Assembly (NCBI RefSeq): GCF_003790525.1
Contig: NZ_CP033635.1
Source: Escherichia coli
GTDB taxonomy: Bacteria > Pseudomonadota > Gammaproteobacteria > Enterobacterales > Enterobacteriaceae
Length of the DNA stretch: 64,000 nt
Reading direction: 5' to 3' (one strand)
Numbering within the stretch: position 1 is the stretch's first letter; every line of letters begins with the position of its first letter. Of this stretch, positions 18,459 to 29,433 are shown piece by piece. Both the position numbers and the translations under genes were made by a program. The notes under the pieces were generated by a model. It ran no database searches, had not been told where the DNA came from, and saw only the letters and a list, made by a program, of their open reading frames with translations.

Positions 18459-19088
18459 ATGCCCGGGCGCTTTGAACTAAAACCAACCCTGGAGAAAGTC
18501 TGGCACGCGCCGGACAATTTTCGCTTCATGGACCCGCTGCCGCCGATGCATCGCCGGGGAGTCATTATTGCGGCAATAGTGCTGATTATCGGTATTCTTC
18601 TGCCTGGAGATGAAACACGCCAGATGCCTGTTGTCACCCGCGAAGCGCAGTTAGATATGCAATCACCCCCCCCAGGTGAAGCACAGCTACAGGCACATTT
18701 AGTGACGCCGCAAAACGATCCGGATCAGGTCGCCCCGGTCGCGCCGGAACCTATTCAGGAAGGTCAACCTGAAGAGCCACCTGTTGCAGAGACACAATCT
18801 TTCCAACCGGAAAGTGGTATCGATCAACAGTGGCGGACATATCGCGTAGAACCAGGCAAGACCCTTGCCCAGCTGTTCCGCGACCATAATTTGCCGCCTA
18901 CAGACGTGTACGCTATGGCCCAGGTCGAGGGCGCGGATAAACCACTCAGTAACCTGCAAAATGGTCAGATTGTTAAAATCCGTCAAAATGCGAATGGGGT
19001 GGTTACCGGCTTAACCATTGATACGGGAAATAATCAGCAAGTCCTGTTCACCCGCCAACCTGATGGTAATTTCATCCGCGCACGCTGA
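18459..19088 (+). CDS. ytfB: Cell-division protein YtfB (OapA/LysM-like C-terminal domain)
   Basis: Start at MPGRFELKPTLEKVWHAPDNFRFMDPLPP; TM segment then a Pro/Gln-rich linker. The upstream ATG at 18423 is possible. Confidence 0.82.
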   Translation: MPGRFELKPTLEKVWHAPDNFRFMDPLPPMHRRGVIIAAIVLIIGILLPGDETRQMPVVTREAQLDMQSPPPGEAQLQAHLVTPQNDPDQVAPVAPEPIQEGQPEEPPVAETQSFQPESGIDQQWRTYRVEPGKTLAQLFRDHNLPPTDVYAMAQVEGADKPLSNLQNGQIVKIRQNANGVVTGLTIDTGNNQQVLFTRQPDGNFIRAR

Positions 19089-19727
19089 TTACCCACGGGC
19101 AGGGTTCACCAAAAGCCAGCTCAGGATGGTCTCTTTGATCACCCTGCGTCTGGCTTCCAAAGCCTCAGGTGAAACCATGCTAATGTGATAAACCATCCCC
19201 AGTGTGTACTGGTTTATTAAATAATATGCACCCAGTGCGGCGATATTAATGTTGATTTGTAAGGGATCAATATATTTCTTAAAGGTTTTCTGCCGCTGCC
19301 CTTCTTCTAATAATGAAGCCATTGACTGCAAATGTGCATGGTTAATTTCAGCGAGGCGTTTTGATTTTTTATAATGCACACCCTTACTTTGGTTTTCACT
19401 ATGGACAATTTTTAAAAACCACGGGTTATTGATGTAATAATCCCAAGTAAAATCAATTATTTTCTCGATCGCAATAACCGGCGAAAGCCCTGAAATGTCA
19501 AGCTCTCTCTCTTTTTCGCGAATATCGTTCCAGGTATATTCCAGTACTTCAATAAACAAATTTTCTTTATTACCAAAGTGGTGATAAACCGTCTGTTTAC
19601 TGCACCCTGCTGCCTTAACAATATTATCTACTCTGGCCCCTTCGTAACCATATTCGGCAAATTCATTAACCGCGCATAGCAGCAATTTTTCCTTCAGGTT
19701 TTGTGCGTGACTGGTATCAAGATACAT
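19089..19727 (-). CDS. TetR/AcrR-family transcriptional regulator (intact)
   Basis: Start placed at [58 protein letters not shown] (TetR HTH), with a GGGGA-type RBS upstream. Track ORF upstream Met codons lack an RBS. Divergent from the downstream operon. Confidence 0.8.
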
Positions 19728-19848
19728 TCCACTTCCCCACTTCCTCTTCGTGATGGCTATCATAACCGGATTTGATCTCAGCGACAGCAAAAAGGATAAA
19801 AGTCGTAATTTCATTGAGTTATCAAATTACCTGTGATCACTCTCGCAT

Positions 19849-19870
19849 ATCAACCAACTAGATGGTTGAT
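19849..19870. promoter_or_regulatory. Candidate TetR operator palindrome in the divergent promoter region
   Basis: ATCAACCA-ACTAGA-TGGTTGAT (8-bp perfect inverted arms) between the TetR start (19727) and the SDR start (19937). Confidence 0.4.
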
Positions 19871-19936
19871 CTTTTTACCTTCCAGTCGCAAGCTAATCAT
19901 CACTCAAGGAAACAATATTCAAAAGAGGGTCATTGT

Positions 19937-20728
19937 ATGAAATCCACTCGTCCTGTTGCTGTCATCACTGGTGCTGCACGTGGTATTGGAAAGGGTTGTG
20001 CGCTGGAACTTGCTCGTAGCGGGTTTAACCTGCTGATTAACGATCGCCCTGATGCCGACAGCGTAGAAAAACTGCATATCACACAACAAGAATGTATGGC
20101 AGAAGGCGTGGAGGTCATTTGCTTCCCTGCCGATGTTGGCGATCTCTCCCTGCATGAAGAGATGCTCGACGCGGCGCAAAACCAGTGGGGGCGTCTGGAC
20201 TGTCTGCTCAACAACGCAGGGATTTCAGTGAAAAAGCGCGGTGACCTCCTCGATCTCGAGCCAGACAGTTTCGACCAAAACATTGCCATCAATACCCGCG
20301 CGCCGTTCTTCCTCGCTCAGGCATTCAGTAAACGTCTGCTCGCACAGCCGAAACCGGAAGCGGAGCTGCCGCACCGCTCGATTATTTTTGTCAGTTCAAT
20401 CAACGCCATCATGCTGGCGATGAATCGCGGCGAATACACCATTGCCAAAACCGCCGTTTCTGCCGCTGCTCGTCTGTTTGCTGCTCGCCTTTGTAATGAA
20501 CAAATTGGCGTTTATGAAGTGCGTCCTGGTCTCATCAAAACCGATATGACTATTCCGGCAACGGCCTATTACGACGAACTGATTGCCAAAGGTCTGGTGC
20601 CGTGGGGACGTTGGGGTTATCCGGCTGATATTGCTTCCACTGTCCGCGCGATGGCGGAAGGTAAACTGATTTACACCTGTGGTCAGGCGGTCGCCATCGA
20701 CGGCGGCTTAAGTATGCCGCGCTTCTGA
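19937..20728 (+). CDS. Short-chain dehydrogenase/reductase (SDR) family oxidoreductase
   Basis: Start MKSTRPVAVITGAARGIGKG (TGxxxGxG) with AGAGGG RBS; NNAG and YxxxK (YTIAK) catalytic motifs. Confidence 0.85.
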   Translation: MKSTRPVAVITGAARGIGKGCALELARSGFNLLINDRPDADSVEKLHITQQECMAEGVEVICFPADVGDLSLHEEMLDAAQNQWGRLDCLLNNAGISVKKRGDLLDLEPDSFDQNIAINTRAPFFLAQAFSKRLLAQPKPEAELPHRSIIFVSSINAIMLAMNRGEYTIAKTAVSAAARLFAARLCNEQIGVYEVRPGLIKTDMTIPATAYYDELIAKGLVPWGRWGYPADIASTVRAMAEGKLIYTCGQAVAIDGGLSMPRF

Positions 20729-20737
20729 GGCTGAATC

Positions 20738-21580
20738 ATGAGAGATCTGTTACAACGCCCGGATTTATTCAGTATCAATACCGCGACACTGGGCTATAAA
20801 ACGCCGCTGCCCGCCATTATTGATGCCTGCGCCGCACGCGGTATTGGCGCCATTGCCCCCTGGCGCAGGGAGTTGCAGGGTGAAGATCTCCAGCAAATCG
20901 CCCGCCAGCTTGCTGCCAGTAACATAAACGTTTCCGGTTTGTGCCGTAGCACCTACTACACCGCACCGACGCTGGCGGAGCGCAAACTGGCGATTGACGA
21001 TAACCGCCGGGCGCTGGACGACGCCGCTGTACTGAACGCCGCCTGTTATATGCAGGTGGTTGGCGGTCTGCCAATGGGAACAAAAGATCTGTACGAAGCG
21101 CGGGAACAGGTGAAACAAGGGATTCGCCAGTTGCTGCCACATTCGAAAGATGTCGGTGTGCCAATTGCACTGGAGCCACTGCACCCGATGACTGCTGCCG
21201 ATCGTTCTTGTCTGTGCACGTTACGTCAGGCGCTGGACTGGTGTGATGAACTCGATCCCGATGGCGAATTTGGCCTCGGCGTGGCGGTAGATGTCTACCA
21301 TGTCTGGTGGGATCCGGATCTCGTCAGTCAGATCCTGCGTGCCGGAAAACGCATCCTCGCGTTTCATGTTTCCGACTGGTTAGTGCCGACCACCGATCTG
21401 GTCAATGACCGTGGAATGCCGGGAGATGGTGTCATCAATATTCCGTCAATTCGTCGGCTGGTTGAAAACGCCGGATTTAATGGCGCTATTGAACTGGAAA
21501 TATTCTCACCGTATTGGTGGCAGCAAGATATTGACAGCACACTGGATATTAGCGTCGATCGCATCGCGCATTATTGCTAA
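20738..21580 (+). CDS. Sugar-phosphate isomerase/epimerase-like protein (xylose-isomerase-type TIM barrel)
   Basis: 280-aa ORF; family call from overall similarity to TIM-barrel AP-endonuclease-2/xylose-isomerase-like proteins (IALEPLHP region); weaker than a motif-based call. Confidence 0.65.
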   Translation: MRDLLQRPDLFSINTATLGYKTPLPAIIDACAARGIGAIAPWRRELQGEDLQQIARQLAASNINVSGLCRSTYYTAPTLAERKLAIDDNRRALDDAAVLNAACYMQVVGGLPMGTKDLYEAREQVKQGIRQLLPHSKDVGVPIALEPLHPMTAADRSCLCTLRQALDWCDELDPDGEFGLGVAVDVYHVWWDPDLVSQILRAGKRILAFHVSDWLVPTTDLVNDRGMPGDGVINIPSIRRLVENAGFNGAIELEIFSPYWWQQDIDSTLDISVDRIAHYC

Positions 21581-21589
21581 GGAATAATC

Positions 21590-22366
21590 ATGAGTGACCA
21601 ACCCGTTCTGTTCAGCAGAGCGGCGGCTTCTTGCCGCCTGACATTGAACCGTGAAGATAAATGTCATGCTATTAATGAAGAAATGATCGAATCTCTCGAC
21701 CATTATTTAAATGAAATTGAAAACGACACCACATTACGATTAGTCGAATTAACGGCAACCGGCGATAAATTCTTTTGTGCAGGCGGCGATATTAAATCGT
21801 GGTCAGCCTATTCGCCATTAGATATGGGCAGAAAATGGATTAAACGCGGCAATGACGTTTTTAATCGCCTGCGCAATTTACCTCAATTAACGGTTGCGAA
21901 TCTCAACGGTCATACCATCGGCGGTGGTATTGAACTTGCCTTGTGCTGCGATATTCGTATTGCTCGCCCCAGCGCGAAATTCTCTAATCCGGAAGTAATG
22001 CTCGGCATGGTGCCTGGCTGGATGGGCATTGAACGCGTGCTTAATCAGGTCGGTCCGGTGGTCGGTCGCCAGATGCTGATGCTGGGTAAACGCCTGACGG
22101 CGCAGGAAGCTCAGGCGGCGAATTTAATTGATGAAGTGGTAGAAAAAGAACAGGTGGAAAGCTGGATGGCGAATCAGTTAGCGCAGCTGGAAAAATGTGG
22201 TCCGGTGGCGCTTGCACATATTAAGCAACTGATTCTGGCACTGGAAAATAAACATGCCGATTACCCGCACCAGCTACTGGCCGGATTAATGTCCGCCACT
22301 CAGGATTGCCAGCAGGCGACGCGCGCCTTTGCCGAAAAAAGTAGCGTGAGCTTCCATAATCAATAA
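21590..22366 (+). CDS. Enoyl-CoA hydratase/isomerase (crotonase) family protein
   Basis: 258-aa ORF; crotonase-fold motifs (FCAGGDIKSW, GHTIGGGIELALCCDIRIA). Confidence 0.85.
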   Translation: MSDQPVLFSRAAASCRLTLNREDKCHAINEEMIESLDHYLNEIENDTTLRLVELTATGDKFFCAGGDIKSWSAYSPLDMGRKWIKRGNDVFNRLRNLPQLTVANLNGHTIGGGIELALCCDIRIARPSAKFSNPEVMLGMVPGWMGIERVLNQVGPVVGRQMLMLGKRLTAQEAQAANLIDEVVEKEQVESWMANQLAQLEKCGPVALAHIKQLILALENKHADYPHQLLAGLMSATQDCQQATRAFAEKSSVSFHNQ

Positions 22367-22375
22367 GGAAATTGT

Positions 22376-23917
22376 ATGCGTAAGATAACAACCGCCGAGG
22401 CACTGGCGGCGCAAATTCAGGACGGTGCGACTATTGCTATTAGCGGTAACGGCGGCGGTATGGTGGAAGCCGACCATATTCTGGCTGCTATTGAAGCGCG
22501 TTTCCTGCAAACCGGACACCCGCGCGATCTGACATTAATCCACTCGCTGGGTATTGGCGATCGCGACAGCAAAGGCACTAACCGTTTTGCTCACGCCGAA
22601 ATGCTCAAACGCATTATTGCCGGACATTTTACCTGGTCGCCCAAGATGCAGGAACTGGTGAAAAGCAATGCTATTGAAGCCTACTGTTTCCCTGGTGGCG
22701 TGATTCAGGCGTTGCTACGGGAGATCGGTGCCGGACGTCCGGGGCTTTTTACCCACGTTGGGCTGGGATCGTTTGTTGATCCACGCAATGGCGGCGGTAA
22801 GTCGAATGAATGCACTACCACCGACCTGGTAGAACTGATTGAAATCGATGGTGAAACCAAACTTCGTTATCGCCCTTTCAAAGTGGATTACGCGATTTTG
22901 CGTGGCACTTATGCCGATCCTCGAGGCAACGTCAGCCTTGAAGAAGAAGCGATTGATATGGATAGCTATTCCATGGCGCTGGCAGCACACAACAGCGGCG
23001 GCAAAGTGTTCGTACAGGTACGCGATGTGCTGGAAGCTGGCGCGATTGAACCACGTCGGGTCAAATTACCGGGGATTCTGGTTGATGGCATCGTTGAGCA
23101 CCGCGAACAACCGCAAACCTATCTTGGTGGTTACGACCTGACCATTAGCGGTCAACATCGCCGTCTAAGTTCTAACGACGCTATTGAACTGGTTAGTCAT
23201 CCGGTGCGTCGCCTGATTGCCCGTCGGGCAGCACGGGAACTGGTGGCAGGCGCTTCAACCAACTTTGGCTTTGGTATTCCGGGCGGTATTCCAGGCGTAG
23301 CGCTGCGCGAAGGCGTGCCTTATCAAAGTTTGTGGCTGAGTGTAGAACAGGGTGTACATAACGGCATGATGCTGGATGATGCTCTGTTCGGCTGCGCCCG
23401 TAACGCCGATGCCATTATTCCATCACTCGATCAATTCGAATTCTACAGTGGCGGAGGGATCGATATCACCTTCCTCGGCATGGGAGAGATGGATCAGTAC
23501 GGTAACGTCAACGTCTCCCATCTCAATGGCAATCTGATTGGCCCCGGCGGATTTCTCGAAATTGCGCAAAACGCCCGTAAAGTGGTGTTCTGCGGCACGT
23601 TCGACGCCAAAGGTAGCAAGATTGATGTAACGCCAGATGGCTTGCATATCGCCCAGTCAGGTCAAATCCCTAAACTGGTTACCCAGGTGGAAAAAATCAC
23701 TTTTAGCGCCGCCTACGCACAGCAAAGTGGTCAGGAAGTGTTGTATATCACTGAACGTGCAGTATTCCAGTTAACGGCAGAAGGCGTTGAATTAATTGAA
23801 ATCGCACCAGGTGTGGAGATTGAGCGCGACATTCTGCCGTATATGGCCTTCCGTCCAATTATCAATCAGCCACGCCTGATGGAAAGTAGCCTGTTTACGC
23901 CGATGGAGGATGCATGA
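22376..23917 (+). CDS. Family-I CoA-transferase (acyl-CoA:acetate/3-ketoacid CoA-transferase, YdiF-like fused subunits)
   Basis: 513-aa ORF; C-terminal ITERAVFQLTAEGVELIEIAPGVEIERDILPYM closely resembles the YdiF C-terminus (...ITERAVFTL...LIEIAPGVD...) as I recall it. Confidence 0.8.
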   Translation: MRKITTAEALAAQIQDGATIAISGNGGGMVEADHILAAIEARFLQTGHPRDLTLIHSLGIGDRDSKGTNRFAHAEMLKRIIAGHFTWSPKMQELVKSNAIEAYCFPGGVIQALLREIGAGRPGLFTHVGLGSFVDPRNGGGKSNECTTTDLVELIEIDGETKLRYRPFKVDYAILRGTYADPRGNVSLEEEAIDMDSYSMALAAHNSGGKVFVQVRDVLEAGAIEPRRVKLPGILVDGIVEHREQPQTYLGGYDLTISGQHRRLSSNDAIELVSHPVRRLIARRAARELVAGASTNFGFGIPGGIPGVALREGVPYQSLWLSVEQGVHNGMMLDDALFGCARNADAIIPSLDQFEFYSGGGIDITFLGMGEMDQYGNVNVSHLNGNLIGPGGFLEIAQNARKVVFCGTFDAKGSKIDVTPDGLHIAQSGQIPKLVTQVEKITFSAAYAQQSGQEVLYITERAVFQLTAEGVELIEIAPGVEIERDILPYMAFRPIINQPRLMESSLFTPMEDA

Positions 23918-25995
23918 GCCAGCTTGATGACACCCTCCTTGATGCGCTCACACACGTCACTTTTCCAAAGGGTTTTGTGTCAGCAGAGCCAGCGTCAATT
24001 GTCACCGTTGAGGATGTTGATTACCCGATCTGGCAAGTTGATGCGCTGGTCGTTGGTAGCGGCGCAGCAGGATTACGTGCGGCAGTTGAACTTAAACGCC
24101 GCCAGCAAAATGTGCTGATCGCCACCGCCGGGTTATATATGGGGACATCGGCATGTTCTGGCTCTGATAAACAAACACTGTTTACCGCCGCTACCGCGGG
24201 CAACGGCGACAACTTCACCAAACTGGCAGAGGCACTGGCGAGCGGTGGGGCGATGGATCACGACACCGCTTATGTCGAAGCGGTAGGTTCTCTGCACACT
24301 CTAGGCGGGTTGCAATATCTTGGTCTGGAATTACCGGAAGATCGCTATGGCGCGATTCTTCGTTATCAAACCGACCATGACGAAGCCGGGCGTGCAACCT
24401 CGTGTGGGCCGCGTACCTCAAGGTTAATGGTGAAAGTGCTGCTGGAAGAAGTACAGCGTCTTGCTATCCCAATGTTGACCAGTGCAACAGTGATTAAACT
24501 GCTACATCAGCGTGACGAAAACGGCGAAGACCGCGTGGCGGGGGCAATCCTCGCGACCGGTCATCGCGCCCATAACCCATGGGGGCTGGCAATTGTGACT
24601 GCGCCCAATGTGGTACTGGCAACAGGAGGGCCTGGCGAGCTTTATCGCGACAGTGTGTATCCACACAAATGTTTCGGCTCACTGGGGCTGGCGCTGGAGG
24701 AAGGTCTGACGCTCACCAATCTGACCGAAAGCCAGTTTGGTATCGGCACAACGCGCAGCACCTTTCCGTGGAATTTGTCCGGGACTTATGTACAGGTGAT
24801 CCCATATATCTATTCCGTGGATGCCGGGGGTAACGAGTATAACTTCCTCGCGGATTACTATCGCACCACCCAGGAGCTGGCTTCAAACATTTTCCGTAAA
24901 GGCTATCAGTGGCCGTTCCACGCCACGCGGGTAATGGATTTTGGCTCCAGCTTGTTAGATATGGCAGTAGCGCAAGAGCAGCAATCAGGGCGTCAGGTAT
25001 TTATGGATTTCAATCGTAATCCTGAACCTGTGCCGGGTGACCTGCCGTTCTCATTAGATCGACTGGACGACGACGTTCGCGCGTATCTGGAAAATAACGA
25101 CGCTCTGGCACCATCGCCCATCGAACGACTGCAACGAATGAATCCGCTGTCTATCTCGCTGTATAAGATGCACGGTTACGATCTCACCACGCAGCCATTG
25201 CAGTTTGCCATGAATAATCAGCATATGAATGGCGGCATTGAAGTCGATATCTGGGGACAAACATCTCTGCCCGGTTGTTTTGCAGTGGGGGAAGTTGCTG
25301 GCACACACGGCGTCACCCGACCTGGCGGCGCGGCGTTGAATGCCGGGCAGGTTTTTGCTGTTCGTCTGGCACGTTTTATTGGTTGCACGCAAAAGCGGAA
25401 TATTGATGGAGATATAGCACAGCTGGCAGCTCCGGCACTGGCTTCTATAAGAGAGATCATTACTCAGGCGCACGATAACGGGACCGGGATGCCGTTGTCG
25501 GTTGTGAGAGAAAAAATTCAGGCACGAATGTCTGACCATGCGGGATTTATTTGCCATGCCGATAAAGTCCGACGTGCCACTCGTGATGCCCTGCTATTGA
25601 ACGAATTTGTGCAACGACATGGATTGGCAATCAAACATGTGGGTGAAGTTGCCGAGCTGTTTATGTGGCGGCATATGACGCTGACTTCTGCCGCCGTCTT
25701 AACTCAACTGACACATTATATTGATGCAGGTGGTGGTAGCCGGGGAGCACGTATTATTCTCGACAGGGATGGAAATTCTATTCCGCAAACACGAAATGGT
25801 TTTTGTGATGCCTGGCGCTTTCGTTCAGAGCGTACTGAGGATAAAAAAGATAAACTGCTTATTCATTATTGCAACAGTATCTTTCACGTCAGAGAAACAC
25901 CTGTCCGTGAGTTTCCCACTATCCGCGGCATTTGGTTTGAAAAAAACTGGCCTGGCTTTCTTAATGGGACAATTTACCAGCCACAGGATGAATGA
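23914..25995 (+). CDS. FAD-dependent oxidoreductase (fumarate-reductase/succinate-dehydrogenase flavoprotein-like)
   Basis: 693-aa ORF; N-terminal dinucleotide fold VDALVVGSGAAGLRAAVE; ATGA overlap with the upstream CoA-transferase stop. Confidence 0.75.
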   Translation: MSQLDDTLLDALTHVTFPKGFVSAEPASIVTVEDVDYPIWQVDALVVGSGAAGLRAAVELKRRQQNVLIATAGLYMGTSACSGSDKQTLFTAATAGNGDNFTKLAEALASGGAMDHDTAYVEAVGSLHTLGGLQYLGLELPEDRYGAILRYQTDHDEAGRATSCGPRTSRLMVKVLLEEVQRLAIPMLTSATVIKLLHQRDENGEDRVAGAILATGHRAHNPWGLAIVTAPNVVLATGGPGELYRDSVYPHKCFGSLGLALEEGLTLTNLTESQFGIGTTRSTFPWNLSGTYVQVIPYIYSVDAGGNEYNFLADYYRTTQELASNIFRKGYQWPFHATRVMDFGSSLLDMAVAQEQQSGRQVFMDFNRNPEPVPGDLPFSLDRLDDDVRAYLENNDALAPSPIERLQRMNPLSISLYKMHGYDLTTQPLQFAMNNQHMNGGIEVDIWGQTSLPGCFAVGEVAGTHGVTRPGGAALNAGQVFAVRLARFIGCTQKRNIDGDIAQLAAPALASIREIITQAHDNGTGMPLSVVREKIQARMSDHAGFICHADKVRRATRDALLLNEFVQRHGLAIKHVGEVAELFMWRHMTLTSAAVLTQLTHYIDAGGGSRGARIILDRDGNSIPQTRNGFCDAWRFRSERTEDKKDKLLIHYCNSIFHVRETPVREFPTIRGIWFEKNWPGFLNGTIYQPQDE

Positions 25996-26015
25996 TATTG
26001 CAAAGGTTAATCACT

Positions 26016-26492
26016 ATGCGAAATATAATTAGATCTATTAATGCTCTGCTTGCAACATTGAATATTACCATTTTGGCGATCATTGTGGCATGTGTGACAT
26101 GGCAAGTGGTAGCACGATTTATATTTAAAAGCCCCAGTATATTTACGGATGAACTCAGTCGTTTGCTTTTTATTTGCCTTGGCCTTTTTGGTGGTGCCTA
26201 TACCGCGGGGCAGAACCGGCATCTGGCGATTGATCTGCTTCCTATGATGCTGAAAGGAAAAGCCCGGCGTCATTTATTTTTGTGTATTCAGATTATCGTT
26301 ATTATCTTCTCTACCATCATTATGGTATATGGTGGTGGGCTATTAACGCTGGACACATTCGATTCAGGTCAAACCTCACCCGCTTTAGGCTGGCAGATGG
26401 GATATATCTATATGAGTATCCCGATTAGTGGTGTTCTTATTATTATATACACCATAGATATGGTTTTAACAGAACTTAAACAACCACTCTAA
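26016..26492 (+). CDS. TRAP transporter small permease (DctQ family)
   Basis: Four-TM small hydrophobic protein; start placed at MRNIIRSINALLATLNIT with AAGG RBS. An ATG at 25992 overlapping the upstream stop is an alternative. Confidence 0.78.
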   Translation: MRNIIRSINALLATLNITILAIIVACVTWQVVARFIFKSPSIFTDELSRLLFICLGLFGGAYTAGQNRHLAIDLLPMMLKGKARRHLFLCIQIIVIIFSTIIMVYGGGLLTLDTFDSGQTSPALGWQMGYIYMSIPISGVLIIIYTIDMVLTELKQPL

Positions 26493-26534
26493 AGATAATA
26501 AACAACAACCAACCATAGTAGGAATGGAGAAATT

Positions 26535-27836
26535 ATGGATTACTGGTTACCGATTATTGTGTTATTTGGTGCCTTCTTTTTTATGTTGGCATTAGGTGTA
26601 CCTATTGTTTATGCCATTGGTTTATCCACACTGGCATCAATTTCCACACAACTCGATTTCAACTCAGCATTGAGTGTGGTTTCCCAAAAGTTAGCCTCCG
26701 GGTTAGATAGCTTTACATTATTGGCAATTCCATTTTTTATTTTGTCTGGCAACATTATGAATCATGGAGGAATAGCGCGACGATTAATCAACTTTGCCAG
26801 AATTCTTGGCGGTCGACTGCCTGGCTCACTTGCTCACTGTAATATTCTTGCCAATATGCTGTTCGGGGCAATTTCTGGTTCAGCTGTTGCTTCGGCGGCT
26901 GCGATGGGCGGCGTCATGCATCCGCAACAGGTTAAAGAGGGCTACGACCCGGCATTCAGTACTGCGGTTAACGTTGCCTCTGCCCCGACGGGTTTGCTTA
27001 TTCCACCAAGTAATACGTTAATCGTCTATTCACTGGTCAGTGGTGGTACTTCTATTGCCGCACTGTTCCTGGCGGGTTATGTTCCGGGAATTTTGCTGGG
27101 TCTGGCACTGATGGTAATAGCCGGTATTATCGCGGTACGTCGCGGTTATCCAAAGCCAGAACGCCCGACTTTACGCCAGGCTGGCGTTGCGATATGGATG
27201 GCTATCCCCAGTATTTTCCTGATTATTTTAATTATGGGGGGTGTATTAAGTGGTATTTTTACCCCGACAGAGGCCTCCGCAATTGCAGTAATTTATACCC
27301 TTTTCCTTGCACTGGTTCTTTATCGTGAAATCTCAGTTAAAGATTTACCTAAAATATTTCTGGAATCCGTTATTACCACTGCAATTGTCTTGTTATTAAT
27401 TGGTTCTTCGATGGGAATGTCATGGGCGATGTCAAACGCTGACGTTCCCTTCCTGATTCTCGATTTGCTTAACACTATTTCTGACAACCCAATAATAATC
27501 CTGCTTATTATCAATATTATCCTGTTGATTATCGGCACTTTTATGGATATGACACCGGCGGTACTGATTTTTACGCCGATATTTTTACCGGTTGTCACCG
27601 AACTGGGCATGGACCCGATTCACTTTGGTATTGTCATGGTACTGAACATGTGTATCGGTATTTGTACTCCGCCTGTAGGCAGTGTGTTATTTGTCGGTTG
27701 TAGTGTATCTAAATTACCGATTAATAAAATTATCAAACCTATGCTGCCATTTTATGCCGTGATGGTATTGGTGCTGGCAATGGTGACCTATATTCCGCAA
27801 ATCAGTATGGCATTGCCAAGAGCACTGGGTTACTGA
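26535..27836 (+). CDS. TRAP transporter large permease (DctM family)
   Basis: 433-aa polytopic membrane protein MDYWLPIIVLFGAFFFMLALGVPIVYAIGL... typical of DctM. Confidence 0.88.
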   Translation: MDYWLPIIVLFGAFFFMLALGVPIVYAIGLSTLASISTQLDFNSALSVVSQKLASGLDSFTLLAIPFFILSGNIMNHGGIARRLINFARILGGRLPGSLAHCNILANMLFGAISGSAVASAAAMGGVMHPQQVKEGYDPAFSTAVNVASAPTGLLIPPSNTLIVYSLVSGGTSIAALFLAGYVPGILLGLALMVIAGIIAVRRGYPKPERPTLRQAGVAIWMAIPSIFLIILIMGGVLSGIFTPTEASAIAVIYTLFLALVLYREISVKDLPKIFLESVITTAIVLLLIGSSMGMSWAMSNADVPFLILDLLNTISDNPIIILLIINIILLIIGTFMDMTPAVLIFTPIFLPVVTELGMDPIHFGIVMVLNMCIGICTPPVGSVLFVGCSVSKLPINKIIKPMLPFYAVMVLVLAMVTYIPQISMALPRALGY

Positions 27837-27888
27837 TGCGCATTCACTGGCGGCACCTGCCGCCATATTTATTAGAAAAGGAACATCT

Positions 27889-28860
27889 ATGAAAATAAAA
27901 GTATCCGCTGGCATTATCGGTGCTGTTCTTATGTTATCCGCAAGCCAGTCCTGGGCAGTGACATTAAAACTGAGTCATAATCAGGATAAGTCTCATCCTG
28001 TTCATAAAGCGATGGAGTTCTTTGCGAAAAAGAGCAAAGAGTACTCTAACGGTGATATTACTATTCGTATTTATCCAAATGGAACATTGGGTACTCAACG
28101 AGAAACAATGGAGCTGATTCGTTCTGGCGCTATTCCACTGGTAAAAACCAACGCGGCAGAAATGGAAGCATTTGAAAATTCCTATAAATTATTTAGCCTG
28201 CCTTATTTGTTCCGCGATCGTGATCATTATTATCAGGTCATGCAGGGCGATATCGGGAGAAAAATCCTCGACTCAACGAAAAGCAAAGGTTATTTCGGGC
28301 TGACTTTTTATGATGGAGGCGCCCGCAGTTTCTACGGCAATAAACCAGTACTGAAACCAGACGATCTCAAAGGCATGAAAGTCCGTGTCCAGCCAAGTCC
28401 TGGCGCAGTTGAAATGATCAAAGTCATGGGCGGTAACCCGACGCCACTGGATTACGGCGAGTTGTATACAGCCTTACAGCAGGGTGTGGTCGATATGGCA
28501 GAAAACAGCGTGATGGCGCTGACCACCATGCGTCACGGTGAAGTGGCAAAATCCTTCAGCCTTGACGAACACACTATGGTTCCCGATGTGGTTCTGATGA
28601 GCAATGCTGCGTTTGATAAACTTAGCCCGGAAAATCAGGCAGTTATATTAAAAGCAGCTAAAGAATCAATGAGCTACATGAAAGACTTGTGGAGCGAGGA
28701 AGAGAAACAAGAATTTGCAAAACTGGATAAAATGGGCGTGAAAGTCTACCAGGTAGATAAAGCTCCGTTTATCGAGAAAGTACAGCCAATGTACGCAAAC
28801 TTCGCTAAGGACAACCCAGCCCTTGCCCCAATGCTGGCTGATATTCAGGCAGCTAAGTAA
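27889..28860 (+). CDS. TRAP transporter periplasmic solute-binding protein (DctP family)
   Basis: 323-aa ORF with signal peptide MKIKVSAGIIGAVLMLSASQSWA; DctP-type binding protein. Confidence 0.88.
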   Translation: MKIKVSAGIIGAVLMLSASQSWAVTLKLSHNQDKSHPVHKAMEFFAKKSKEYSNGDITIRIYPNGTLGTQRETMELIRSGAIPLVKTNAAEMEAFENSYKLFSLPYLFRDRDHYYQVMQGDIGRKILDSTKSKGYFGLTFYDGGARSFYGNKPVLKPDDLKGMKVRVQPSPGAVEMIKVMGGNPTPLDYGELYTALQQGVVDMAENSVMALTTMRHGEVAKSFSLDEHTMVPDVVLMSNAAFDKLSPENQAVILKAAKESMSYMKDLWSEEEKQEFAKLDKMGVKVYQVDKAPFIEKVQPMYANFAKDNPALAPMLADIQAAK

Positions 28861-28924
28861 TTATCTTCGTAGGGCTGCTTATTGTGGCCCTTATCGATAT
28901 CTGCAAGTGCTCGCTACAAAAGCA

Positions 28925-28951
28925 AAACGCCGACCAATGGTCGGCGTTTTT
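28925..28951. terminator. Bidirectional rho-independent terminator (accessory operon / rplI)
   Basis: aaacgccgacc-aatg-gtcggcgttttt: GC stem flanked by an A-tract on one side and a T-tract on the other, between convergent dctP-like gene and rplI. Confidence 0.7.
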
Positions 28952-28971
28952 ACGTCTCGTTGAATAACGAA

Positions 28972-29433
<462 letters not shown>

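Follow-up and report, generated by a model that had tools for sequence, protein, structure and literature searches.

The 64,000-nucleotide stretch of Escherichia coli DNA analysed here (contig NZ_CP033635.1; hereafter the window) carries, between ytfB and rplI, a gene for a TetR-family regulator and, divergent from it, eight closely spaced genes encoding five enzymes and a transporter of the tripartite ATP-independent periplasmic (TRAP) type. We found that this repressor-controlled catabolic operon is real, intact and widespread. Positions 19000-29000 correspond to 4771311-4781311 of NC_010498.1 (E. coli SMS-3-5) with 100% identity, and the nine open reading frames (ORFs) are full-length and intact at the coordinates given in a preliminary description of the window, with the ORF list and the RefSeq annotation of SMS-3-5 in agreement. 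The regulator (212 aa; RefSeq WP_001361377.1) is encoded at 19089-19727 on the minus strand, and a 209-bp divergent regulatory region (19728-19936) separates it from the first plus-strand gene, which encodes a classical short-chain dehydrogenase/reductase (SDR; 263 aa, 19937-20728). The genes that follow, all on the plus strand, encode a xylose-isomerase-like TIM-barrel protein (280 aa, 20738-21580), a crotonase-family enoyl-coenzyme A (CoA) hydratase/dehydratase (258 aa, 21590-22366), a fused family-I CoA-transferase of the YdiF type (513 aa, 22376-23917), a 693-aa FAD flavoprotein with the L-aspartate-oxidase/SdhA fold but belonging to an uncharacterised family ('FAD-X', 23914-25995), and the TRAP small permease DctQ (26016-26492), large permease DctM (433 aa, 26535-27836) and solute-binding protein DctP (323 aa, 27889-28860). 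The gene-family calls of the preliminary description all hold when set against NCBIfam and Pfam models and matches to PDB structures.

Spacing between the plus-strand genes is 9, 9, 9, -4, 20, 42 and 52 bp, and a Shine-Dalgarno sequence precedes every gene. The tightly packed eight-gene operon described earlier is thus borne out, and we infer that its genes are co-transcribed. The start of the SDR gene is the ATG at 19937, with GAGGG ahead of it, rather than position 19862 of the longer ORF; for dctQ, RefSeq places the start at 26016, and an alternative ATG at 25992 overlaps the flavoprotein stop codon as ATGA, with AGGA 6 nt upstream. A bidirectional intrinsic-terminator-like hairpin shared with rplI, at which the operon had been said to end, was found at 28924-28950, between the stop codons of dctP and rplI; its 12-bp stem, in which 7 pairs are GC, is flanked by an A-tract and a T-tract, and it falls within the flank conserved across all alleles. 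Neither the ORF list nor the RefSeq annotation contains mobility genes in the interval, as had been reported. Another GC-rich hairpin, TGGCGGCACCTGCCGCCA then TATTTATT (27848-27865), is located in the 52-bp gap between dctM and dctP; it possibly sets how much binding protein is made relative to permease, either as an attenuator inside the operon or by acting on RNA stability. In some assemblies, predicted proteins of 973-1078 aa (P0003, P0033 and P0087) combine CoA_trans and FAD_binding_2 domains; these fusions probably arose from single-base changes at the 4-bp overlap of the CoA-transferase and flavoprotein genes (23914-23917) that join the two frames.

In Klebsiella oxytoca, K. huaxiensis and Salmonella enterica, the regulator gene and the five enzyme genes occupy the identical site between ytfB and rplI, sharing 77-82% DNA identity with the window, compared with 83-86% for the flanking cycA and fklB, and the CoA-transferase and flavoprotein genes are present in 3,121 of the 5,426 complete E. 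coli genomes (58%). In K-12 MG1655 the rplI-ytfB interval holds only yjfZ and the ytfA pseudogene, as had been stated, and alignment to this interval defined what is missing: K-12 has the form with a major facilitator superfamily (MFS) transporter gene and yjfZ, minus two deletions of 545 bp and about 7.3 kb, leaving the TetR C-terminus (ytfA, about 400 nt) and a 102-bp relic of the SDR gene. One survey lists ytfA as a variably present TetR gene. Insertion of an island in SMS-3-5 was ruled out by the synteny with Klebsiella and Salmonella together with a divergence near that of cycA and fklB. Since the locus is syntenic in these genera and has diverged much as its flanks have, the comparisons indicate that it is chromosomal, ancestrally enterobacterial and polymorphic, and its earlier designation as 'accessory' does not stand; K-12 is a deletion derivative.

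The gene set also recurs elsewhere, as the genome-context comparison proposed earlier was meant to reveal. The seven-gene set (TetR, five enzymes and transporter) is found at the syntenic site in Klebsiella and Salmonella; on the non-syntenic contig L010 it recurs with a TRAP system, TetR and an additional MaoC dehydratase; and another copy is present in the Sodalis ligni chromosome. A diverged but complete cassette, with a TIM-barrel protein 75% identical to that of the window plus a flavodoxin gene, was found on the Salmonella enterica contig AAACYH010000016.1 (L095, 1827-18846), which carries genes for RepA1-leader/IncFII RepA, ProQ/FinO and Hha, and there it adjoins resolvase and Tn3-family transposase genes. 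A genuine long-chain flavodoxin gene (FldB model, 217.5 bits; cut-off 215) closes this IncFII-linked cassette as well as the one in Sodalis. A search of the PLSDB plasmid collection with the IncFII-linked copy gave no match, suggesting that the plasmid form is rare. Among the E. coli records, one plasmid match was seen. Judging from its recurrence in such unrelated settings, the gene set behaves as a single unit.

Gene decay and local divergence were also observed at the locus. On a contig of E. coli/Shigella type (L094, 9001-11960), a truncated TIM-barrel gene encodes 207 aa and the CoA-transferase gene is broken into ORFs of 151 aa and 339 aa; the protein database assigns the 207-aa form to E. 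coli, Shigella boydii and S. flexneri, and partial flavoprotein genes to S. dysenteriae. These truncated and split frames indicate decay of the operon in some lineages of E. coli and Shigella. The 3' end of ytfB, the TetR gene and the intergenic region (18500-19936) of the window form a deeply divergent haplotype with a GC content of 40-42%, sharing 77-86% DNA identity with other E. coli alleles; the enzyme genes are 93-98% and rplI and the rps genes >99% identical. This haplotype is present at >=90% identity in about 390 of 5,416 genomes, and about 5,000 show 60-80% identity. In the window the stop codons of ytfB and the TetR gene abut, whereas in other alleles the two genes overlap convergently by 17 bp. 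The space between transporter and rplI varies by lineage, containing genes for a hipBA-type toxin-antitoxin (with hipA frameshifted), yjfZ (DUF2686, sometimes frameshifted) or an EamA-family protein; such variable stretches include L002 11495-13256, L003 11621-12416 and L005 13468-14394.

The regulator contains the Pfam domains TetR_N (2.9e-14) and TetR_C_29 (1.4e-30), and its described divergence from the plus-strand genes is confirmed, with a palindrome core in the shared region that is conserved across genera. This palindrome, ATCAACCAACT followed directly by AGATGGTTGAT, spans 22 bp (19849-19870; 11+11 nt, 91% complementary). The E. coli alleles examined, E. albertii, K. oxytoca, K. huaxiensis and Salmonella all share its invariant 18-bp core, CAACCAAC(T/C)AGATGGTTG, and because the remainder of the intergenic region is only 70-86% identical across those alleles and species, this phylogenetic footprint is likely to be the TetR operator. 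Brenneria, Pseudescherichia, Phytobacter, Mangrovibacter and contig L010 also have related palindromes, of the form TCAAC..GTTGA, upstream of their homologous clusters linked to TetR. Another inverted repeat, GTAATTTCAT..ATCAAATTAC (19805-19830), is AT-rich, lies 20 bp upstream of the conserved palindrome and is only partly conserved in other alleles.

The adjacent genes for DctQ, DctM and DctP (26016-28860) form a complete three-component TRAP set, in which DctQ has a YiaM-like NCBIfam match, DctM scores 458 bits against TIGR00786, over the cut-off, and DctP exceeds the cut-offs of NF037995 and TIGR00787. The TRAP system is present here as described earlier but turned out to be one of two alternative transporter modules, occurring in 1,445 of the 5,426 complete E. 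coli genomes, with a 425-aa MFS gene in its place in 1,686. Homology between the two kinds of allele is lost as the flavoprotein gene reaches its 3' end (25754-25977) and restarts at 28918, so the exchange is limited to the transporter module (25978-28917), with hipBA, yjfZ or the EamA gene located 3' of the transporter gene in MFS alleles. GC content is 43% in the TRAP genes versus 52% in the enzyme genes. The same dimorphism occurs in Klebsiella, and between E. coli and K. huaxiensis the TRAP genes share 73-78% and the enzyme genes 75-82% DNA identity. Recent inter-genus transfer of the TRAP module was ruled out by this match in identity, and the equal divergence argues that the dimorphism is old. 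The alternative MFS protein falls into the D-galactonate (ACS) subfamily of sugar-acid transporters, with a score under the cut-off.

The closest PDB entries to DctP are structural-genomics TRAP binding proteins, and DctP, which is assigned to the clade of hexuronate binders, shares 53-56% identity with them; 4N91, 4MHF and 4N15 bind D-glucuronate or D-galacturonate (PMC7660916). In Salmonella STM3169, glucuronate is contacted by N35, Q36, E74, R150, R170, N210 and D237 (PMC7660916), and DctP keeps six of these seven residues, as N31, Q32, R146, R166, N206 and D233, with R166 aligning with Arg170, the carboxylate-pairing residue. The previous suggestion that the TRAP system takes up an organic acid is supported. 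The view that the substrate cannot be deduced was too pessimistic: because of the residues in the DctP site and the placement of the alternative MFS in the ACS subfamily, a hexuronate-like sugar acid appears to be the substrate class with the best support. Our tentative interpretation, given a little less than an even chance, is that the genes form an operon which TetR represses and which serves to catabolise an imported sugar acid of the hexuronate type, either D-glucuronate or a close analogue, by combining keto-sugar with CoA-thioester chemistry.

The window TRAP system resembles the hexuronate systems of Salmonella (STM3169-3171) and Vibrio (the uxa/uxu-linked DctPQM) in its three components, the carboxylate Arg and the six glucuronate contacts, but has Gln for the Glu contact. 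The gene for the V. cholerae homologue sits among uxaC, uxuA, uxuB, kdgK, eda and a beta-glucuronidase gene; those systems are linked to uxaC and uxuAB, whereas no uxaC/uxuAB-type genes adjoin the window dctP, the neighbours of which encode the SDR, TIM-barrel protein, crotonase, CoA-transferase and flavoprotein. Furthermore, the STM3169 orthologue is located at a separate locus, ygiQ-ftsP, in the examined genomes that carry it. The binding protein of that locus has all seven STM3169 contacts and is 53% identical to the window DctP; it is considered the orthologue because the contacts fall at the published numbering. Analysed in E. coli AVS0226 (L092), the ygiQ-ftsP locus represents a second accessory sugar-acid TRAP cluster, present in many E. 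coli, with genes for a GntR/FCD regulator, a mannitol-dehydrogenase-family protein, a Zn-ADH, an Ldh-family oxidoreductase and DctPQM.

Catalytic motifs of the SDR, TIM-barrel protein, crotonase and CoA-transferase are all intact. The SDR has TGAARGIG at residue 11, Asp36, NNAG at 92 and Y167xxxK171, and is probably NAD-dependent because of Asp36. The only model that it passed is PRK12745 (420 bits), a legacy model built on its own subfamily; it scored below the FabG equivalogs TIGR01830 (127 versus 298 bits) and PRK05653 (114 versus 296), leaving the RefSeq product name FabG unsupported, and its nearest PDB entries, 4DA9 and 4ONE, have no assigned function. The crotonase retains the catalytic Glu pair, E115 in GGGIE and E135 in NPEV (equivalent to E144 and E164 of rat ECH), and many NCBIfam enoyl-CoA hydratase models match it, none over its equivalog cut-off (best 152 versus 394 bits). 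Residues 6-508 of the CoA-transferase align with E. coli YdiF (2AHU, 6e-115), to which it is similar in its full length, fused alpha/beta architecture and catalytic Glu (Glu324 in SVEQG, an S-x-E-x-G motif); it is, however, a paralogue in a different operon and scores below every NCBIfam equivalog cut-off.

The TIM-barrel protein matches Pfam AP_endonuc_2 (6.1e-38) and PDB 3JU2/3QC0 (S. meliloti SMc04130; 3e-85, about 55% identical), as well as 7VPF (1e-62), its next-nearest solved relatives being the inosose isomerase IolI and ketose 3-epimerases. E146, D185, H188 and E252 are kept as in 3JU2, with metal-ligand roles suggested by the family, and the protein falls in the keto-sugar isomerase/epimerase branch. 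Since IolI is its nearest characterised relative, this protein also provides a starting point for a different proposal, in which the operon would degrade an acid of hydroaromatic or alicyclic type (quinate or shikimate, for example) by inositol-like SDR/TIM chemistry and CoA-dependent action of the crotonase on the ring, with the flavoprotein reducing a ring C=C. Quinate and shikimate are six-membered polyhydroxy carboxylates similar in shape to a pyranuronate; the Brenneria cluster, with an SDR 74% and a TIM-barrel protein 70% identical to those of the window, has a PcaK-type aromatic-acid:H+ symporter; the aromatic-acid and galactonate subfamilies give equal scores for the MFS protein of the Pseudescherichia-type cluster; and the K-12 ydiB-aroD-ydiF neighbourhood ties the YdiF transferase to quinate/shikimate genes. 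We nevertheless consider a hydroaromatic substrate very unlikely, as no AroE/YdiB-type or AroD-type genes are present in the operon, the residues of the DctP site match glucuronate binders, and the KdgK-like and Eda-like partners described below suit open-chain C6 sugar acids and not carbocycles. A role of the TIM-barrel protein as a dehydroshikimate dehydratase was rejected, no such PDB match being obtained even at E<10.

The flavoprotein has a FAD_binding_2 domain and a fold of the fumarate reductase/SdhA/L-aspartate oxidase class, but is only 16-21% identical to those enzymes and has an extra beta-rich C-terminal extension of roughly 90 residues. It keeps the His/Arg pair of the FAD domain (H437, R469) but lacks the capping-domain His (FrdA H232, NadB H244), having ESQFGI versus QYHPT with an invariant Gly276 in an alignment made by eye, and it lacks the His for covalent FAD, none being present in its GTSxxSGSDKQT segment. 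All equivalog models score 5-6-fold below their cut-offs (best 124 versus 718 bits). We found neither a gene for an Fe-S subunit nor one for a haem partner in the operon; since a flavodoxin gene ends two versions of the cluster, the protein may be a flavodoxin-linked reductase, as these cluster ends suggest. Its relatives in fold searches of AFDB and PDB carry generic names only, with no AFDB neighbour bearing a curated name. Full-length AFDB relatives of 30-37% identity, all unannotated, include proteins from an Asgard archaeon, Promethearchaeum syntrophicum, and from gut anaerobes, among them Enterocloster bolteae, Victivallis vadensis and Coriobacterium glomerans.

These properties bear on the possibility that the genes constitute an electron-sink or dehydroxylation module for anaerobic gut redox balance, in which a thioester would be dehydrated, the enoyl-CoA reduced and the CoA passed on. 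The carnitine Cai cycle works by a similar logic, with a CoA-transferase, a crotonase dehydratase and a flavoprotein acting on a beta-hydroxy acid, and the composition of transferase, crotonase and flavoprotein mirrors CaiB, CaiD and CaiA. The dedicated flavodoxin, a low-potential donor, at the end of the plasmid-type and Sodalis versions, the fumarate-reductase/NadB fold without Fe-S or haem partner and the presence of family members in strict gut anaerobes are all consistent with such a module. The window enzymes, however, are not homologous to their Cai counterparts: the transferase belongs to family I and CaiB to family III, the flavoprotein has the NadB/Sdh fold and CaiA is an acyl-CoA dehydrogenase, and the SDR and TIM-barrel protein are extra. 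An anaerobic regulator site, for which no search was made, was not found either. As the SDR and TIM-barrel protein are the most conserved partners of the flavoprotein and, like the link of relatives to KdgK/Eda, favour full catabolism, an electron sink is quite unlikely and catabolism of a hexuronate-type acid is preferred.

The flavoprotein family comprises 418 representatives (50% clustering, E<=1e-30). Neighbours within 7 kb were collected at 86 loci from named genomes and metagenomes, representing the top 80 among at least 597 matches together with a small number of additional loci, a sample biased by this choice to the closer relatives. An SDR was found at 34 of these loci, a Gfo/Idh/MocA oxidoreductase at 28, GMC oxidoreductases at 22, a LacI regulator and sugar ABC genes at 20 each, a TIM barrel at 18, TetR at 14, crotonase and CoA-transferase at 13 each, and KdgK-like kinases and Eda-like aldolases at 11 each. 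The Gfo/Idh/MocA gene, for which levoglucosan dehydrogenase is the best model, is usually located directly upstream of the flavoprotein gene, and versions from Planctomycetes also contain OYE/FadH ene-reductases and a GH28-like gene. The 13 loci at which CoA-transferase and crotonase recur with the flavoprotein belong to Alpha-, Beta- and Deltaproteobacteria and Clostridia; in Tropicimonas a non-homologous family-III (CaiB-type) transferase takes the place of the family-I enzyme, a replacement from which it may be argued that CoA transfer is a real requirement of the pathway. Taken from these neighbourhoods, the SDR, TIM-barrel protein and flavoprotein form a conserved core for carbohydrate-type chemistry, which in relatives points to a kinase and an aldolase for 2-keto-3-deoxy-sugar acids, and the CoA-transferase and crotonase are a recurrent add-on for hydration or beta-elimination of an activated thioester. 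The sequence of CoA activation, hydration and redox steps proposed in the preliminary description under-describes the enzymes, because it leaves out this core and its carbohydrate-type neighbours elsewhere.

That proposal amounted to a route resembling beta-oxidation, in which a short-chain hydroxy-, keto- or enoic acid of non-sugar type would be taken up and turned into its CoA thioester; the flavoprotein would then desaturate or reduce the thioester, the crotonase would hydrate it and the SDR would oxidise it to a 3-ketoacyl-CoA. The YdiF-type transferase, the best-characterised match of any enzyme in the set, the two catalytic Glu residues of the crotonase and the annotation of the SDR as a 3-ketoacyl reductase fit this route, relatives in a betaproteobacterium and in Desulfobacterales are accompanied by genes for acyl-CoA dehydrogenase, electron transfer flavoprotein (EtfAB) and MaoC, and contig L010 adds a MaoC dehydratase. 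The operon, however, has no thiolase, ligase or lyase to complete a cycle and leaves its TIM-barrel keto-sugar isomerase without a role; true FabG and FadB models score far under their cut-offs; the flavoprotein is mainly partnered with carbohydrate enzymes, sugar transporters and KdgK/Eda-like genes; and the TRAP and MFS transporters alike point to sugar acids. A beta-oxidation-like route is, on balance, unlikely.

For the catabolism of a hexuronate-type acid, the genes suggest the following steps. Sequence and comparison show that the high-affinity TRAP system, or elsewhere the ACS-family MFS protein, imports a carboxylated sugar-like solute, and that five catalytically intact enzymes of the cytoplasm are encoded immediately upstream in one compact unit; the other steps are inferred. 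TetR would repress the operon until it lets go of the operator upon binding the substrate or an intermediate. The SDR may oxidise a hydroxyl, after which the TIM-barrel enzyme would isomerise or epimerise beside the new keto group; the YdiF-type CoA-transferase would thioesterify the carboxylate, and the crotonase would then hydrate, or beta-eliminate, at the beta carbon (C4 in a hexuronate), with the product probably handing its CoA on to the substrate, as happens with carnitine in the Cai cycle. C=C reduction or dehydrogenation may be the task of the NadB/Sdh-fold flavoprotein with a flavodoxin-type partner, and KdgK and Eda, encoded at other sites in the genome, would feed the product, a 2-keto-3-deoxy-sugar acid, into central metabolism. 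Because a hexuronate has its C4 hydroxyl in the beta position relative to the C6 carboxyl, beta-elimination of a uronyl-CoA could give a 4,5-ene product of the polysaccharide-lyase type, on which the TIM-barrel protein and SDR could then act as KduI and KduD do. A specific form of this scheme, a CoA-dependent hexuronate route with a C6 thioester, the crotonase as a C4 'lyase' acting on the monosaccharide inside the cell, a flavoprotein from a new, flavodoxin-linked branch of the NadB/Sdh fold that converts the carbohydrate intermediate so formed, and the TIM-barrel protein and SDR in place of KduI and KduD leading to 2-keto-3-deoxygluconate, is improbable as it stands, but if true, the flavoprotein family, which extends from E. 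coli to Planctomycetota and gut Firmicutes, would represent a new class of carbohydrate-active flavoenzyme.

Several points weigh against a hexuronate-type pathway. At the binding site, the seventh contact differs, being Q70 in DctP versus E74 in STM3169, although the Q70 state is also found in the V. cholerae homologue (56-59% identical), and the residues flanking N206 differ from the Vibrio protein as well. In NCBIfam all five enzymes fall short of the equivalog models for known hexuronate pathways, the Brenneria version uses the PcaK-type symporter for aromatic acids, and some relatives sit with acyl-CoA dehydrogenase, ETF and MaoC genes in arrangements resembling fatty-acid chemistry. For glucuronate, E. 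coli is already equipped with ExuT, UxaC and UxuAB, which would make an operon for the identical substrate redundant. A sigma-70 consensus scan of the regulatory region (19728-19936) gave no strong match; in the full-text literature, with subscription journals outside its coverage, no paper or experiment ties these genes to a substrate; and both the order of the steps and the reaction of the flavoprotein are conjecture.

Comparison with known systems revealed partial similarities only, and no prior characterisation of the cluster was found in the literature so covered. The KduI/KduD and UxaC/UxuB/UxuA routes likewise employ an isomerase and an SDR-type reductase on keto-uronates, and relatives of the cluster adjoin KdgK/Eda-like genes, but homology at the family level is lacking: the window has a TIM barrel versus the cupin isomerase, its SDR scores 118 against the KduD cut-off of 339 bits, and these routes use neither CoA nor a flavoprotein. 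With 3-keto-sugar pathways such as that for levoglucosan (LgdA/LgdB), which oxidise, then eliminate or isomerise, then reduce, the resemblance is to relatives whose flavoprotein gene is directly downstream of a levoglucosan-dehydrogenase-like Gfo/Idh/MocA gene and adjoins genes for xylose-isomerase-like TIM proteins; the window, however, has an SDR instead of the Gfo/Idh/MocA enzyme, the Lgd pathway has no flavoprotein or CoA enzymes, and the LGDH model gives 298 bits versus a cut-off of 650. Klebsiella michiganensis catabolises a sugar acid, 2-deoxy-D-ribonate, via acyl-CoA intermediates after MFS uptake (Price et al. 2019, PMC6365646). This pathway was rejected as a match since its gene set differs (PMC6365646), comprising a CoA-synthetase, beta-hydroxyacyl-CoA dehydrogenase, thiolase, lactonase and glycerate kinase, of which the synthetase, dehydrogenase, thiolase and kinase are absent from the window, and including no TIM barrel, crotonase or Frd-like flavoprotein.

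A complete, regulated catabolic operon of most E. coli genomes has thus been overlooked, having escaped study because K-12 deleted it, and its substrate is likely to be a sugar acid derived from host or diet. This bears on the use of gut and urinary-tract niches and on metabolic differences among E. coli lineages, and the TRAP/MFS dimorphism at a single locus represents a natural experiment in high- versus low-affinity uptake of the same substrate. As the flavoprotein family spans many phyla and has no characterised member, assigning the function of one flavoprotein would annotate hundreds of representative clusters.

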